Positions 1 to 5,824 of a stretch of DNA of 5,824 bases are shown one piece after another (within the stretch, counting starts at the first letter, position 1; every line of letters begins with the position of its first letter). This DNA comes from a virus (lineage: Duplodnaviria > Heunggongvirae > Uroviricota > Caudoviricetes). The DNA lies in the IMG/VR virus record IMGVR_UViG_2711768049_000003; one strand, given 5' to 3'. The position numbers and the translations under genes were made by a program. The notes beneath the pieces are model-generated. The model searched no databases. It was not told the DNA's origin and was given only the letters and a program-made list of their open reading frames with translations.

Positions 1-3000
1 TCTTCTGTCCGGTTGCTGATTCAGCTTGAGCGTAGCGGGCACTGGGTGACAGAGAAGGATATCACCATTAACGGTAAGACCACCTCGCAGTACCTGACGT
101 CGGTGATAATCGGTAACCTCCCTGAGCGTCCCTTTAATATCCGGATAGTCAGGGAGACGGCGGACAGTACCACGGACCAGCTGCAGAACAGAACGCTCTG
201 GTCGTCATACACCGAAATCATCGATGTGAAACAGAGCTACCCGAACACAGCCATAGTGGGGCTGCAGGTGGATGCGGAGCAGTTCGGTGGGCAGCAGATG
301 GCGGTGAACTACCATATCCGCGGGCGCATCATCCAGGTGCCGTCAAACTATGACCCGGAAAAACGTACATACAGCGGTATCTGGGACGGGACTCTGAAAC
401 CGGCATACAGCAACAACCCGGCCTGGTGTCTGTGGGATATGCTGACGCATCCACGTTATGGTATGGGAAAGCGCCTCGGGGCCGCGGATGTGGACAAGTG
501 GGCGCTCTATGCCCTCGGACAGTACTGTGACCAGCCGGTTCCGGATGGCTTTGGTGGTACAGAACCCCGTATGACCTTTAATGCGTACCTGTCACAACAG
601 CGTAAGGCGTGGGACGTGCTGGGGGATTTCTGCTCTGCAATGCGCTGTATGCCGGTATGGAACGGACAGACGCTGACGTTTGTTCAGGACAGACCATCGG
701 ATGTTGTCTGGACTTATACCGCCGGTAATGTGGTGACGGGGGAGGATGGGGTAAGTTTTCATTACAGCTTCAGTGCCCTCAAGGACAGACACACGGCAGT
801 TGAGGTGAATTACACCGATCCGCAGAATGGCTGGCAGACATCGACTGAACTGGTGGAGGATCCGGATGCCATACTGCGCTACGGACGCAATCTTCTGAAG
901 ATGGATGCGTTCGGCTGTACCAGCCGTGGTCAGGCTCACCGGGCAGGCCTGTGGGTGATAAAGACCGAACTGCTGGAAACACAGACAGTGGATTTCAGTG
1001 TGGGGGCGGAGGGACTGCGTCACACGCCGGGCGATATCATTGAAATCAGTGATAATGCGTATGCCGGTACCGTGATCGGCGGGCGGATCCTGTCCGTCGA
1101 CAACGCCAGCCGGACCCTGACGCTTGACCGTGAAGTCACTCTCCCGGAAAAGGGCACATCCACGGTGAATCTGATAAACGGCAGTGGTAAGCCGGTGAGT
1201 GTGGATGTTACCGGGCAGCCATCACCTGACAGGATACAGATCAGCACACTGCCTGACGGGGTGGTGGAACACAGTATCTGGGGGCTGGCATTGCCGGGAC
1301 TGCGCCGCCGTCTGTTTCGGTGTGTGGCGATCCGCGAAAATGCGGACGGTACCTTCGCCATCACGGCGGTGCAGCATGTGCCGGAGAAGGAGGCCATCGT
1401 GGATAATGGTGCCACCTTTGAGCCGTTGTCCGGTTCGCTGAACAGTGTCACACCTCCGGCAGTACAGCATCTCACGGTGGAGGTAAGCGCGTCTGACGGT
1501 CAGTATCTGGCGGCGGCGAAATGGGACACGCCGAGGGTGGTGAAGGGCGTGCGCTTCAGTCTGCGCCTGACCAGCGGAACCGGTGAAAACAGCCGTCTGG
1601 TGACCAGCGCCATCACCGCCGACACGGAGCACCGTTTCAGTGGCCTGCCGCTGGGGGAATACACCCTGACGGTCAGGGCGATAAACAGCTATGGCCAGCT
1701 GGGGGAGCCTGCCACCACCACGTTCCGGATTAACGCACCGGCAGCACCTGCCACCATTGAACTGACCCCCGGCTATTTCCAGATAACAGCAGTGCCGCGT
1801 CTTGCGTTGTATGATCCGACGGTACAGTTTGAATTCTGGTTCTCAGAAAAACGCATCACGAACACGGCACAGGTGGAAACGTCCGCCCGTTATCTGGGGA
1901 CCGGCAGCCAGTGGAGCGTCTCCGGCTCGCACATTAAGCCAGGGACAGATTTCTGGTTTTATGTGCGCAGCGTCAACCTGGTGGGTAAATCCGTTTTTGT
2001 TGAAGCAACCGGACGGGCGAGCAATGATGCGGAAGGTTATCTGGACTTTTTCAAAGGAGAAATCGGGAAGACACATCTGGCACAGGGGATGTGGGAGCTG
2101 ATTGATAACAGTCAGCTTGATGATGAGATGGCGGAGATGAAGACCACCATCACAGAAACCCGCAATGAAATCACACAGACGGTCAATAAAATCCTGGAAG
2201 ACCAGAGTGTCACCATACAGCAGATACAGCGTGTGCAGAAGGAGACGGATGACAGCCTGAGCGCACTGTACATGCTGAAGGTGCAGAAAACGAAAAACGG
2301 TATTCCGTATGTTGCTGGTATTGGTGCGGGGATTGAGGATGTTGATGGCCAGACCCTGAGCAATATTCTGCTGCAGGCTGACCGTATCGCGATGATTAAC
2401 CCGGAGAACGGCAACACCACGCCGCTGTTTGTGGCGCAGGGGAATCAGTTGTTCATGAACGACGTATTCCTGAAGCGGTTGTTTGCGGTGAGCATCACCT
2501 CGTCCGGCAATCCCCCTGTGTTCTCCCTGACGCCGGAAGGCAGGCTGACGGCCCGTAATGCGGATATCAGCGGAAATATTAATGCGAACTCTGGCACGCT
2601 CAATAATGTGACCATTAACCAGAACTGCCGGATTCTGGGAAAACTGTCTGCAAACCAGATTGAAGGTGACCTGGTCAAAACAGTGGGGAAAGCTTTCCCA
2701 CGGAATAACAGTTATGCCAGTGGCACTATAACGGTCACCGTTTATGATGACCAGGGCTTCGACAGGCAGATCATCATTCCACCGGTACTGTTCCGGGGGG
2801 CGAGACATGAGCACCAGTCCAGCAAAGATCACACTTCAACATGGTATTCCACGTGTCAGTTACAGGTGCAGATGAACGGAAGGGTAATTTTTCATGAGCC
2901 GGCAACGGATGTCACCCGGGTGTTTTCGTCCGTCATTGATATGCCGGCAGGACGGGGTCATGTGACCCTGACGTTTAATGTGTGGTCGAACGGGGTGAAC

Positions 3001-3081
3001 CACTGGACGCCGACAACATACATCAGTGATTTACTGGTTGTGGTCATGAAAAAATCCACGGCGGGTATCAGTATTTCGTGA
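1..3081 (+). CDS. J: Lambda J-like central tail fibre / host-specificity protein, 5'-truncated by the window edge (C-terminal ~1027 codons present)
   Basis: Reading frame is open from nt 1 with no stop until TGA at 3079-3081; the listed ORF 13..3081 begins at an internal TTG, so the real start lies upstream of the window. The translation reads like lambda J-family proteins from memory, with fibronectin-III-like beta-rich repeats in the middle (e.g. [27 protein letters not shown]...[28 protein letters not shown]) and a distinct C-terminal ~250-aa domain. Position directly upstream of a side tail fibre gene fits lambdoid synteny. Confidence 0.88.
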
Positions 3082-3278
3082 ACATGATGACCGGAATTGC
3101 CGGAAGGATATAAAACCGTACAGTATGCGCGGGTGCCTTTGGCTGATGGCCGGAGGGAACACCTGAAGGCCTGATGTGAAAAGGCCCCGAGTCAACTTCA
3201 ATGTTAACCCGAGGCCCTGAACCGTCTACCTTAAGCAAGTGGCAGGTTAGCGCCTCTCCGTAATAAGGAGCAAGTTCT

Positions 3279-3389
3279 GTGTCGCAAAAACCGTTAAAAA
3301 CCACCGTGATTTGTATCACGGTAGTGCTCATTATCTGGATCACCCACAGTTCACTGTGTGAATTCCGGTTCCGGATAGCACCTTTTTAA
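3279..3389 (+). CDS. Candidate small membrane peptide (36 aa), Hok/Gef-family-like type I toxin, possibly C-terminally shortened
   Basis: GTG start at 3279 lies 8 nt after a consensus Shine-Dalgarno AAGGAG (3265-3270). Translation is (M)SQKPLKTTVICITVVLIIWITHSSLCEFRFRIAPF, stop TAA at 3387-3389. It has a ~15-residue hydrophobic core followed by a polar/charged L-C-E-x-R-x-R motif, resembling Hok/Gef as recalled (Gef ...VICITAVVAALVTRKDLCEVHIR...). It is too short for the ORF track and about 10 residues shorter than canonical Hok proteins. Confidence 0.4.
   Translation: MSQKPLKTTVICITVVLIIWITHSSLCEFRFRIAPF
3284..3322 (-). terminator. Possible minus-strand hairpin plus T-tract (candidate antisense-RNA terminator or mRNA structure)
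   Basis: Perfect 8-bp inverted repeat ACCGTGAT (3303-3310) / ATCACGGT (3315-3322) with a 4-nt loop. On the minus strand the stem is followed by GGTTTTTAACGGTTTTT (complement of + 3284-3302). No flanking minus-strand gene is evident, so function is uncertain. Confidence 0.22.
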
Positions 3390-3410
3390 TCCTGTAAACC
3401 ACGATTTTTA

Positions 3411-3444
3411 CCGCAGACCGGGAAACCGGCACTGCGGTTTTTTT
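3411..3444 (+). terminator. Rho-independent terminator (hairpin plus T7 tract) at the end of the J-stf intergenic insert
   Basis: CCGCAG (3411-3416) pairs with CTGCGG (3432-3437), with an inner CCGG/CCGG extension, and is followed immediately by TTTTTTT (3438-3444). It sits 22 nt after the small ORF stop and 13 nt before the stf ATG. Confidence 0.7.
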
Positions 3445-3457
3445 ATGGGGAAAATCT

Positions 3458-4864
3458 ATGGCAGTCAGAATATCGGGTGTGCTGAAGGACGGCGCGGGGA
3501 AGCCGGTACCGGGATGCACAATAGAACTGAAAGCGCGACGCACCACAGAAACGGTGATTGTCACTACGGTGGCATACGGGCAGCCGGGGGAGACAGGCAG
3601 CTACAGTATGGATGTTGAACCGGGGCTGTACCGTGTGACCCTGAACACAGAAGGGCGTATGCCGTCATACGTCGGTGACATTCTGGTGAAGGCGGACTCT
3701 GCACCGGGAACACTGAATAAATTCCTGATGGACTTTGAGGATGCGCCATATTATCCGAAAGCCCTCGCTGAGCTGGAAGCGGTGGCTGCGGAAATACTGA
3801 AGCGTGCTGAAGCCTCCGCAGCCAGTGCAGAGGAGGCCAAAAAACGGGCAGAGAATGCCAGGGGGCCGAAGGGTGATAAAGGTGACCCGGGACCGCAGGG
3901 GGTACAGGGACCGAAAGGTGAGACAGGTGCAACCGGGCCACAGGGTGAGCGTGGTGCAACAGGGGCACAGGGTGTTCCGGGCCCCAAAGGGGATACCGGA
4001 GCCACAGGACCTGAGGGTAAAGCCGGTCCTGTGGGACCAAAAGGTGACAGGGGGGACACAGGGCCCAGAGGTGAACGGGGTGAAAAGGGAGAGAAAGGAG
4101 ATCCGGGTGGCCCTCCAGGGCCAAAGGGAGATCCGGGACCACAGGGGCCTGCCGGGCCTCAGGGAAAATCAGGCAGCCTTGAAGATATTACAGACAGGGA
4201 AGCTTTCATCCGTGAGCTTGGTGTGCCCAGAGCATACGGGCGTGACATTTCAACCGGAGCAGGTGAGTGGACGACAGAAGAGTTTGTTGCCTGGCTGAAA
4301 GAGCAGGGGGCATTTGACCATACCTGCTGGATAATGAAGGCATCACTGCCAGCGGCGATGAATAAGGCCATCACTGATGTCGGACCGGGGAAACTCAATC
4401 TGGGCGGCTGTACCATTGAAGTGATGGGAACATATGACGCCGCCATTGTACGGGTCACCATTGGTGAATACGGTGCAACGGGGTTTATTAATGGCACGGT
4501 CTGTACCTGTACGGTTTATGGCGATACCCGGAAATACCACTGGCGGGTGGATTACGGTACCAGGAATAAACCCACGACGGCGAGTCTGGCTGTCAATGGC
4601 TGGGAACGTGATGAGGCTACCGGACGGATGCGACAATGGGGTACGCTTGTGATAAGTGAATCCGATGGTCAGGCGTTATCACTGCACTCCATCCGTTTTC
4701 CGGTGGTTTTTCCTTCAGCAGTGCTGAATGTTCAGGTTTCTCCGGTGGGGGAGCCCGGGAAAATTCCTGGATACACTCTGTCCTCACCGTCATTGCAGTC
4801 GGTGACACTGAGGACTGTCAGAGGAACCTCCGGTAAGTTTTTCTGGGAAGCGACCGGATACTGA
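3458..4864 (+). CDS. stf: Side tail fibre protein with lambda Stf-like N-terminal domain, central collagen-like Gly-X-Y tract and a distinct C-terminal (putative receptor-binding) domain
   Basis: ATG at 3458 preceded by GGGGA (3447-3451). The N-terminus [28 protein letters not shown]... closely resembles the lambda Stf N-terminus as recalled ([26 protein letters not shown]). An Ala/Glu-rich helical segment is followed by 34 Gly-X-Y triplets (aa 136-239), then a ~230-aa Gly-poor C-terminal domain. Stop TGA at 4862-4864. Confidence 0.9.
3863..4177 (+). repeat. Collagen-like Gly-X-Y coding repeat (27 uninterrupted triplets, a one-residue register break at GG, then 7 more)
   Basis: Translation G136-S240 of the stf ORF reads [104 protein letters not shown]. 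The DNA shows the matching GGN-rich 9-bp periodicity, which also produces the spurious minus-strand ORFs here. Confidence 0.9.
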
Positions 4865-4873
4865 GGAGGGATT

Positions 4874-5098
4874 ATGGAGCGTTATATTTTTTCACCGTCC
4901 GCGAATATGTTTTATCCGGCCTCCCTGCGTGCCGTTTACGAGACTACCGGAAACTGGCCTGTGGATGGTATAGAGGTGGACTATGCCGTGTATAAAGTTT
5001 TTGCAGCGGATGCTGCACCGGCGGGCATGAAGCGGGGAGTCGGTACGGAAAAAATGCCGGTCTGGGTGCCGGTATCGGAAGAGGGCACGGGAAAATGA
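4874..5098 (+). CDS. Small protein (74 aa) resembling the N-terminal domain of phage tail fibre assembly (Tfa) proteins
   Basis: Very strong Shine-Dalgarno GAGGAGGG (4863-4870) overlapping the stf stop, ATG at 4874. The translation MERYIFSPSANMFYPASLRAVYETTGNWPVDGIEVDYAVYKVF...AP.GMKRGVG...PVWV fits the conserved N-terminal pattern of Tfa proteins as recalled (FYPA-L---Y---G-WP-DG--V ... P-GK-R-G ... P-W). Its stop TGA (5096-5098) overlaps the next ATG in an ATGA junction. Confidence 0.75.
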   Translation: MERYIFSPSANMFYPASLRAVYETTGNWPVDGIEVDYAVYKVFAADAAPAGMKRGVGTEKMPVWVPVSEEGTGK

Positions 5099-5769
5099 TG
5101 CATGTCAGAAATTTTTCGTATTACACACCGGCAGAGCCGGATGTGGCGGGTGCGATATACCTGAAATCTGAGGATGGTCAGGACTGGTATGAATGCCATT
5201 CCAGGTTTGCGGAAGACACGCTGAAGGTGGTGTATGACAGCCGTGGTGTGATTACGGGATATGGTAAGGACATTAAGTTGTTGTGGCCGGTGAACCAGAG
5301 TGTGGCTGAAGTGCCGGACGCACCGGAAAGCCTGAAAATTGACCTGAGCGGACGCTGGGGATTTGACGGGGAAAAAATCACCGACCTGCTGACGGCTGAC
5401 AGAGCACGTGAACAGAAGGGGGCAGAAATAAATGCCTGGCGAAGTGCCATGGAAAATGCGGAGTATGTGTTTGAGTACAATGGACGGAAGTGGGACTACG
5501 GCAAGGTGACTCAGGTTCGTCTTGAGCCGTCGGTGGCAGCAGCAAAAGCGGGAATACTGCCGGAGGGATTTTTCTGGACAGATGCAGAAAATAATGACGT
5601 GCCGATGACAGCGGAGGCTTTGATCGCGCTCAGCGCCGCGGCAGAAAAGGCGATGTTTCAGAAAGGGATGGAAATCCACGTTCGCCAGCGCATGATGAAG
5701 AAAGAGCTGGAAAAGCTGACCAGTGCGGATGAGATACTGGCATATAAGGTTGGCTGGGCACAGGAATAA
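5095..5769 (+). CDS. Tail fibre assembly / chaperone-like protein (224 aa), N-terminal region resembling the P2 gpG / Mu U family
   Basis: ATGA overlap with the upstream ORF indicates translational coupling; same strand and operon as stf. Residues ~20-95 (IYLKSEDGQDWYECHSRFAEDTLKVVYDSRGVITGYGKD...SVAEVPDAPE) match the recalled P2 gpG/Mu U N-terminal pattern (W.WSEDGKNWYEE...DTIKIVYD...SVVEVPDI). The C-terminal half does not show the typical Tfa C-terminal ...PDIEWP motif. Stop TAA at 5767-5769. Confidence 0.75.
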   Translation: MMHVRNFSYYTPAEPDVAGAIYLKSEDGQDWYECHSRFAEDTLKVVYDSRGVITGYGKDIKLLWPVNQSVAEVPDAPESLKIDLSGRWGFDGEKITDLLTADRAREQKGAEINAWRSAMENAEYVFEYNGRKWDYGKVTQVRLEPSVAAAKAGILPEGFFWTDAENNDVPMTAEALIALSAAAEKAMFQKGMEIHVRQRMMKKELEKLTSADEILAYKVGWAQE

Positions 5770-5824
5770 CAGACAAAAAGATGGGGGAACCAGCACCTCA
5801 CGCATGAACTGCAAAGATTATGAA

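Follow-up and report, generated by a model that had tools for sequence, protein, structure and literature searches.

A probable saccharide-binding side tail fibre of mosaic origin, with a collagen-like shaft, in a lambda-like Escherichia coli prophage

The gene described here probably encodes the side tail fibre (a Stf homologue) of a lambda-like E. coli prophage, built by recombination and directed at a saccharide, a reading that draws on homology to fibres of known structure. The stretch of DNA that was analysed (the window, 5,824 nucleotides, 5.8 kb) constitutes the distal end of the tail operon of this prophage, and its features are collected in Table 1. Within it, the fibre ORF sits between gpJ, from the end of which a 376-bp spacer separates its start, and two ORFs of the tail-fibre-assembly type. 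The initial annotation had divided the fibre into three modules, an Stf-like anchor, a collagen-like shaft and an unrecognised tip. At least five modules can be distinguished, with the part called unrecognised comprising two recognisable ones, a Mu-gp52-type domain (8ju3) and a Gp53-like_C domain (PF21882).

Table 1. Features of the window, with the divergence of each fibre module from the closest non-identical prophage (L003)
Feature	Residues	Position	Strand	Basis or remark	Amino-acid identity to L003	dS to L003	dN to L003
gpJ, C-terminal 1022 codons		13-3081		complete set of Pfam J domains
stf-type side tail fibre gene	468 aa + stop	3458..4864	+	ORF list; ATG start
Module 1, PfN anchor/collar domain	1-95	3458..3742	+	PF08400; Ur-lambda Stf alignment	100%	0.09
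Module 2, short Ala/Glu-rich linker (coil)	96-134	3743..3859	+	composition; short 'PCoil' of Ghosh et al.	100%	0.07
Module 3, collagen-like triple-helix shaft	136-241	3863..4180	+	28 + 7 Gly-X-Y triplets; PF01391	93%	0.39
Single Gly-X-Y register break, G-D-P-G-G-P-P-G	214-221	4097..4120	+
Module 4 (middle domain), Mu gp52(S')/P1 Sv'/P2 H-type globular domain	242-375	4181..4582	+	no Pfam model covers the region	89%	0.41	0.06
Module 5, Gp53-like_C distal tip	376-468	4583..4861	+	PF21882, pyocin fibres, AF2 fold; most divergent module	74%	1.01	0.18
74-aa ORF, like the N-terminal half of P2-like tail fibre assembly proteins	74 aa	4874..5098	+
224-aa Tfa-like protein, Mu Tfa (gpU)-like N-terminal domain and C-terminal DUF4376	224 aa	5095..5769	+

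Anchor, linker and collagen-like shaft

Residues 1-134 match the Pfam family phage_tail_N (PF08400) with 138.3 bits against a cutoff of 26.6 and over the complete profile (positions 1-134 of 134), and residues 1-91 align ungapped with residues 1-91 of the Ur-lambda Stf collar (9e7m_Ta/9mgh; E 3.7e-29), 56 of the 91 positions being identical by hand count (62%). These matches agree with the initial assignment of the first ~100 residues as Stf-like. In the cryo-EM structure of Ur-lambda, the collar at the gpV/gpM junction is a dodecamer of Stf residues 1-94, and in lambda twelve Stf chains give rise to four fibres (PMC12617516). The nearest relatives of the anchor are the fibres of lambdoid and Stx phages (313 phage records). 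With a PF08400 match above threshold, a homologous collar and a position after gpJ and before Tfa-like genes, the protein carries these three characteristics of a lambda-type side tail fibre. The linker that follows is rich in Ala and Glu, as had been noted (13 Ala and 7 Glu among the 34 residues 101-134), and is likely to be helical; its sequence recurs identically in P-EibA ORF-401, a member of the EPcl proteins, in which the PCoil is an Ala-rich coiled coil (PMC3368898).

The shaft starts with 28 uninterrupted Gly-X-Y triplets (residues 136-219), which is far beyond chance, followed by an extra residue, P220, and by 7 more triplets at residues 221-241, as counted by regular expression. Pfam scores the tract as Collagen (PF01391) with 57.7 bits against a cutoff of 27.2. 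An earlier count of 34 triplets was accurate to within one and had overlooked the one-residue interruption. The sequence around this break fits exactly the motif G-x-P-G-G-P-x-G that is conserved in the EPcl proteins. In related fibres the length of the collagen tract shifts by whole triplets (+18 aa, -27 aa), and a 27-bp tandem repeat lies at 3917-3974. In the prophage of strain 04-00955 (L005) collagen gives way to a Pf2 repeat precisely at G-x-P-G-G-P, an indication that this motif is a junction point in addition to being a possible hinge.

The two globular C-terminal domains and the downstream ORFs

The non-collagen C-terminus counts 228 aa (241-468), close to the ~230 aa initially estimated. 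Residues ~242-375 are homologous, in sequence and in fold, to residues ~191-352 of 8ju3_A (191-352 in the alignment, E 4e-24), a chain from the crystal structure of gp52/S', the G(-) fibre of phage Mu (PMC11821841). In tblastn searches this middle domain is found at 33-43% identity in S' of Mu and D108, Sv' of P1 and Sv of P7, all invertible-segment fibre ends, as well as in the fibres of D6, RCS47, SSU5, P2, PSP3 and fiAA91-ss. An exhaustive HMMER search of 1.84 billion cluster representatives returned 137 with E<=1e-10 for the domain; among the 150 matches listed, most covered query residues ~3-137, at very different positions within proteins of about 200 to 1900 aa. Its N-terminal partners are of the lambda type (PF08400), the P2 type (PF12571) and the T4 gp34 type, and it precedes at least four kinds of end (Gp53-like_C, Collar, Peptidase_S74 and other). 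The very different positions of the matches are the mark of a self-contained, mobile domain; the domain is a common one, yet without a curated family model. Among the E. coli proteins of alignment A1, the middle domain is followed either by a Gp53-like tip or by a Pf2 repeat, collagen and other tips. The same pair of middle domain and Gp53 domain is present at only 41% identity in a protein of 714 aa (P0056), so that this pairing is old and not a one-off. Structure prediction by AF2 with 95 diverse representatives (alignment A2) gave a well-predicted middle domain and lost the tip, and prediction with 21 close E. coli relatives (A1) gave a middle domain of pLDDT 23-35; each model was used only for the domain that it predicted well.

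The distal tip matches Gp53-like_C (PF21882) with 32.9 bits against a cutoff of 24.9, and finds the R1 and R2 pyocin fibres with E values from 5e-8 (6cxb) to 1e-5 (6cl5, 6ct8 and 6cl6 being found as well). The pyocin alignment starts at the published foot boundary, the foot of R1 pyocin being V596-Y701 (PMC6363177), and residues ~374-468 align from the foot start onward (PATASRALNGWWKDNDTGLIVQW against the pyocin foot stretch). The pyocin foot is a lectin-like jellyroll proposed to bind LPS saccharides (PMC6363177, PMC6116203). The AF2 model of the tip (A1, monomer) is of moderate confidence, with pLDDT 63-83, and its top five Foldseek matches are 6ct8, 6cl5, 6cl6, 6cxb and AP22 gp53 (4mtm), with E values of 1.4e-5 for 6ct8 and 1.5e-3 for 4mtm, 22-28% identity to these two over alignments of ~95 columns, and TM-scores of only ~0.3 over the whole query. 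The Pfam score above threshold and the lectin-like fold of this moderate-confidence model place the tip with the Gp53-like_C domains and R-pyocin feet, and by analogy it is presumed to be a lectin-like beta-sandwich foot and the receptor-binding domain of the fibre. A role of the C-terminus in setting host range, as put forward in the initial annotation, is plausible by the same kind of analogy. Its differences from relatives cluster in three loop regions (~397-407, 429-439 and 454-460) by our own reading of the alignment against the AF2 secondary structure. The R-pyocins and AP22 belong to other organisms, differ in the remainder of the fibre and do not conserve the distal loops, and their ligand therefore cannot be transferred to the window fibre. 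By the pyocin analogy the tip may bind a sugar or LPS; the tip of lambda Stf binds OmpC (PMC12617516), which makes a receptor of protein nature conceivable for the window fibre too.

Of the two downstream ORFs, the first (74 aa) matches the phrog_188 family 'tail fiber assembly protein' (E 2e-14), shows 40-43% identity to residues 1-67 of the Tfa proteins of P2-like phages (143-146 aa) and is present in all relatives examined (L003-L005). The second (224 aa) aligns over residues 19-119 with 5yvq_B, 'Tail fiber assembly protein U' (E 6e-17), and matches PF14301 (DUF4376; 64.5 bits) and phrog_11571 (E 1.6e-126). The two overlap start to stop, both are intact, and both fit a putative role in fibre assembly; compared with each other as possible paralogues, they gave no significant similarity. 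In phage 1720a-02 a counterpart of the 224-aa protein, 77% identical, lies downstream of a fibre with a different tip, and the protein is therefore not a tip-specific partner. A cassette in which the tip would travel with the P2-like Tfa that the 74-aa ORF resembles was considered, and no such link emerged: the fibre ends that precede those Tfa genes are not significantly similar to the tip (E 0.04 and 2), and nucleotide identity to L003 is 74% for the tip and 94% for the 74-aa ORF. A promoter and terminator consensus scan of positions 3050-5824 gave nothing above chance. The neighbouring hok gene is truncated through a 103-bp deletion.

Mosaicism, proposed mechanism and alternatives

Divergence between modules was assessed against the closest non-identical prophage, that of strain 317, which occupies the same insertion site (L003). 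It rises stepwise along the gene (Table 1), while the flanking DNA is 95% identical in J, 94% in the 74-aa ORF and 97.5% in the 224-aa ORF. A 60-nt sliding window places the divergence in two patches, 4336-4515 and 4606-4845, separated by a junction at 4516-4605 that is 98% identical to L003 and codes for the last part of the middle domain plus the conserved start of the foot. Separate homology searches with each module, a check that the initial annotation had put forward, returned different nearest relatives: lambdoid and Stx phages for the anchor, the myophages Mu, P1 and P2 for the middle domain and pyocins and AP22 for the tip. The mosaicism first proposed is thus real and finer than three modules. 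In every variable module dN/dS is 0.1-0.2; the gene is therefore under purifying selection, and the divergence was imported by recombination and did not arise through positive selection in place. The matches in H16 and H17, which cover nt 1-1184 only, were considered as a further module boundary and set aside, an IS100 insertion being the cause in the one examined, H16 (locus L002). Tail-fibre mosaicism as such is said to have been first described by Haggård-Ljungquist et al. in 1992.

In the mechanism that we propose, the fibre protein would trimerise, and its N-terminal ~95 residues would join the Stf collar around the tail, just above the tip complex. The Ala/Glu-rich helical segment and the collagen triple helix of ~106 residues would together make a thin shaft with an estimated length of ~30 nm, the collagen helix rising ~0.29 nm per residue, and the single register break could serve as a hinge. 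This shaft would carry the Mu-gp52-type domain and then the terminal, lectin-like Gp53-type beta-sandwich. This last domain, perhaps jointly with the one before it, may bind a surface saccharide such as the LPS core or O-antigen, and such reversible binding would speed adsorption before gpJ engages its own receptor, with one or both Tfa-like proteins aiding the folding and trimerisation of the C-terminal domains. The gene would have arisen as fibre genes of unrelated phages recombined at conserved junction sequences, and recombination at these junctions may be the way in which this group of phages changes its binding target. In the R-pyocins specificity may depend more on the upstream Knob2 than on the foot (PMC6116203), and the middle domain could therefore act as an additional binding site or even as the principal one.

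A rather improbable alternative reading takes the tip to be mainly a nucleus of folding and trimerisation and assigns recognition to the middle domain or to a fibre-bound Tfa-like protein. Mu Tfa and the T4 gp38 adhesin are precedents for a bound protein of this kind, and North and Davidson are said to have reported in 2021 that Tfa proteins can bind host cells. Two Tfa-like ORFs indeed lie downstream, one of them a homologue of Mu gpU, a protein known from co-crystals with the Mu fibre (5yvq). The 224-aa protein is, however, not tip-specific. The divergent patch at 4336-4515 falls in the middle domain, in line with a role of this domain in recognition, as is the greater importance for spectrum accorded to Knob2 over the foot in R-pyocins (PMC6116203), but the divergence there is mostly synonymous (89% amino-acid identity, dN 0.06), whereas amino-acid change is much the greatest in the tip (74% identity, dN 0.18), where it clusters in the three loop regions.

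That the gene is a remnant of a decaying prophage and gives no working fibre appears highly improbable. The truncation of the adjoining hok, the IS100 interruption of stf in one relative and the frameshifted stf of lambda laboratory strains (PMC12617516) are what such a reading would build on. The ORF is intact, however, in the window as in the close relatives compared with it (L001, L003, L004 and L005), dN/dS is that of a gene under purifying selection, the tail genes within 9 kb upstream in the strain M18 prophage are annotated intact, and the downstream ORFs are intact with their start-to-stop overlap preserved. A bacterial collagen-like surface adhesin of the streptococcal Scl or Legionella Lcl type, not part of a virion, has negligible likelihood: the NCBIfam models for Scl2/SclB, Scl1/SclA and Lcl match with E 1e-21 to 1e-22, but these matches are driven by composition, are confined to the Gly-X-Y tract and score 75-80 bits against cutoffs of 325-500 (the LPXTG adhesin models NF038329/NF038330 reach 76-80 bits against cutoffs of 325-400, in the collagen tract only), and the protein has a phage collar domain at its N-terminus, phage fibre domains at its C-terminus and its gene inside a tail operon.

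Relation to known fibres, and occurrence

Returning to the side tail fibre as the preferred reading, the closest described proteins are the EHEC prophage collagen-like proteins EPclA-D defined by Ghosh et al. in 2012, which consist of PfN, an Ala-rich PCoil, one collagen domain or two and a C-terminus that varies, and which were found experimentally to be dumbbell-shaped trimers with a genuine collagen helix and were interpreted as side tail fibres (PMC3368898). The window protein has the same order of PfN, coil, (Gly-X-Y)n and non-collagen C-terminus and the conserved break motif, and shares with the EPcl proteins the anchor, the Ala/Glu coil, the broken collagen domain and the position after J in lambdoid prophages. 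Its coil is shorter, at 39 aa by our own boundaries (aa 96-134) versus 88-116 in EPcl. The nearest named example is P-EibA ORF-401 (EPclC), which is 86% identical over the first 101 residues (tblastn) and 69% identical over residues 1-225 (BLASTP); after its first collagen domain, ORF-401 diverges, with a Pf2 repeat followed by another collagen domain and a different C-terminus.

The C-terminus was compared with those of the four published classes. PfC (PF06820) gives no match at E<=0.1, and the protein is therefore neither EPclA nor EPclB. The EPclC end (Pf2, second collagen domain, PfC2) was rejected, there being no Phage_fiber_2 match and the BLASTP alignment with ORF-401 stopping inside the collagen tract, with residues 241-468 lacking a counterpart. 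The EPclD end (Stx2-86 gp21, Peptidase_S74-type) was rejected likewise, with a best E of 0.98, which is not significant, and with PF13884 present in Stx2-86 gp21 and absent from the window protein. Judged by its sequence, the window protein is an EPcl member in the broad sense, with a C-terminus outside the four published classes where tested.

Lambda Stf itself shares with the window fibre a homologous collar, the genomic position and Tfa-type genes downstream, and differs in its long, Ala/Ser-rich shaft. Its tip is T4 gp37-like (PMC12617516). In the PDB, similarity to lambda Stf is confined to residues 1-91, and the two proteins are therefore unrelated beyond residue ~95. With the fibres of Mu (gp52, S'), P1, P7, D6 and P2 (H), one internal domain alone is common; these fibres belong to the baseplates of contractile-tailed phages, and their N-termini and distal tips differ from those of the window fibre.

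All five modules are already known, and the gene is an ordinary example of phages shuffling their host-recognition parts. As textbook tail-fibre mosaicism it leaves the understanding of host-range switching unchanged, and what it adds is a C-terminal combination that none of the four published architectures of collagen-like fibres has. A bolder reading, possible though on the whole unlikely, would see in it a fifth, undescribed EPcl architecture (PfN, short coil, single collagen domain, Mu-gp52-type domain, Gp53-like foot) in which both globular domains bind different saccharides, and in the Mu-gp52-type domain, of which only one relative has been solved, a widespread and uncatalogued receptor-binding module. 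The two-ligand part follows the analogy with R-pyocins, where Knob2 and foot have been proposed to bind different surface saccharides. If true, this module would be common to fibres of the lambda, P2, Mu, P1 and T4 types. Chimeric stf engineering is already practised, and the well-delimited cassette of junction, tip and Tfa-like genes could serve in retargeting lambda-based particles, with modest practical value.

The DNA of the stf ORF is 99.9% identical in chromosomal prophages of E. coli M18, CI5 and M3. In strain M18, J is followed by a small insert, stf and the tfa-like genes, the end of the prophage adjoins ykgJ/potB, and the tail genes within 9 kb upstream are annotated intact. The M18 CDS, WP_073527775.1, is named only 'prophage tail fiber N-terminal domain-containing protein', so RefSeq already includes the gene, with a generic name. 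Matches to the gene of any extent occur in 137 of 5,426 complete E. coli genomes, and in 23 of the 5,426 they cover at least 80% of it; sequenced phages gave only two matches at the DNA level, both partial. A word-indexed protein search returned E. coli fragments only, because collagen repeats break assemblies.

Middle domain of the fibre and its downstream genes

The middle domain of the side tail fibre (Stf) is widespread, with 137 cluster representatives (50% identity clusters) recovered at E<=1e-10, and in relatives a Phage_fiber_2 repeat usually precedes it. Pfam holds no family for this domain, and its sole solved relative is the phage Mu G(-) fibre gp52/S' (8ju3). Two Tfa-like (tail-fibre-assembly-type) ORFs, rather than one, follow stf. 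The first encodes 74 aa and is the counterpart of the N-terminal half only of P2-like Tfa proteins, which measure 143-146 aa, while the 224-aa product of the second comprises a Mu-gpU-like N-domain fused to DUF4376. DUF4376 proteins are also encoded downstream of P-EibA ORF-401 and the phage 1720a-02 fibre, both of which carry other tips, and therefore the role of the Tfa-like ORFs may concern the collagen fibre in general and not the tip specifically.

Features in the window and in related loci (L001, strain M18; L002, strain 95-3322)
Feature	Position	Strand	Remark
hok/sok-type remnant	3131-3389	+	between gpJ and stf
hok-like ORF	3279-3389	+	3' end removed by 103-bp deletion
Strong hairpin, then seven U residues	3410-3444	+	-19.1 kcal/mol, z -4.2
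27-bp tandem repeat	3917-3974	+	2.1 copies, 83% match; within collagen-coding tract
~135-aa fibre domain	4181-4582 (aa 242-375)	+	alignment A2 (95 diverse representatives)
Tfa-like ORF, 74 aa	4874-5098	+	
Tfa-like ORF, 224 aa	5095-5769	+	
ompC-annotated porin gene	L001 1554-2717		lies among the tail genes, flanked by one for a tail protein and by gpL
stf interrupted by IS100 (IS21-family)	L002 5270-7200		interruption near codon 395

The interval between gpJ and stf

At the place that lom occupies in lambda, the window has a hok/sok-type toxin-antitoxin remnant. The Rfam sok model (RF01794) matches 3131-3292 with 34.9 bits (E 3e-5), which does not reach the gathering score of 59, and at the position of the truncated hok-like ORF an intact 46-aa Hok/Gef gene is annotated in two relatives, the strain 317 prophage (L003) and L004. 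The hairpin beyond this ORF, which ends ~14 nt 5' of the stf start codon and is kept in relatives, is probably the hok mRNA terminator, and late transcription would have to read through it for stf to be expressed. A consensus terminator scan did not pick up this hairpin, probably because its stem is bulged.

Allele variation and a porin gene in the M18 prophage

The tandem repeat is consistent with whole-triplet length differences among stf alleles. In strain 95-3322, Tfa-like genes are absent downstream of the IS100-interrupted stf. The M18 prophage carries its ompC-annotated porin gene ~7.4 kb upstream of stf. Because OmpC can serve as a receptor for side fibres of the lambda type (PMC12617516), this candidate prophage-borne porin variant could bear on superinfection exclusion.
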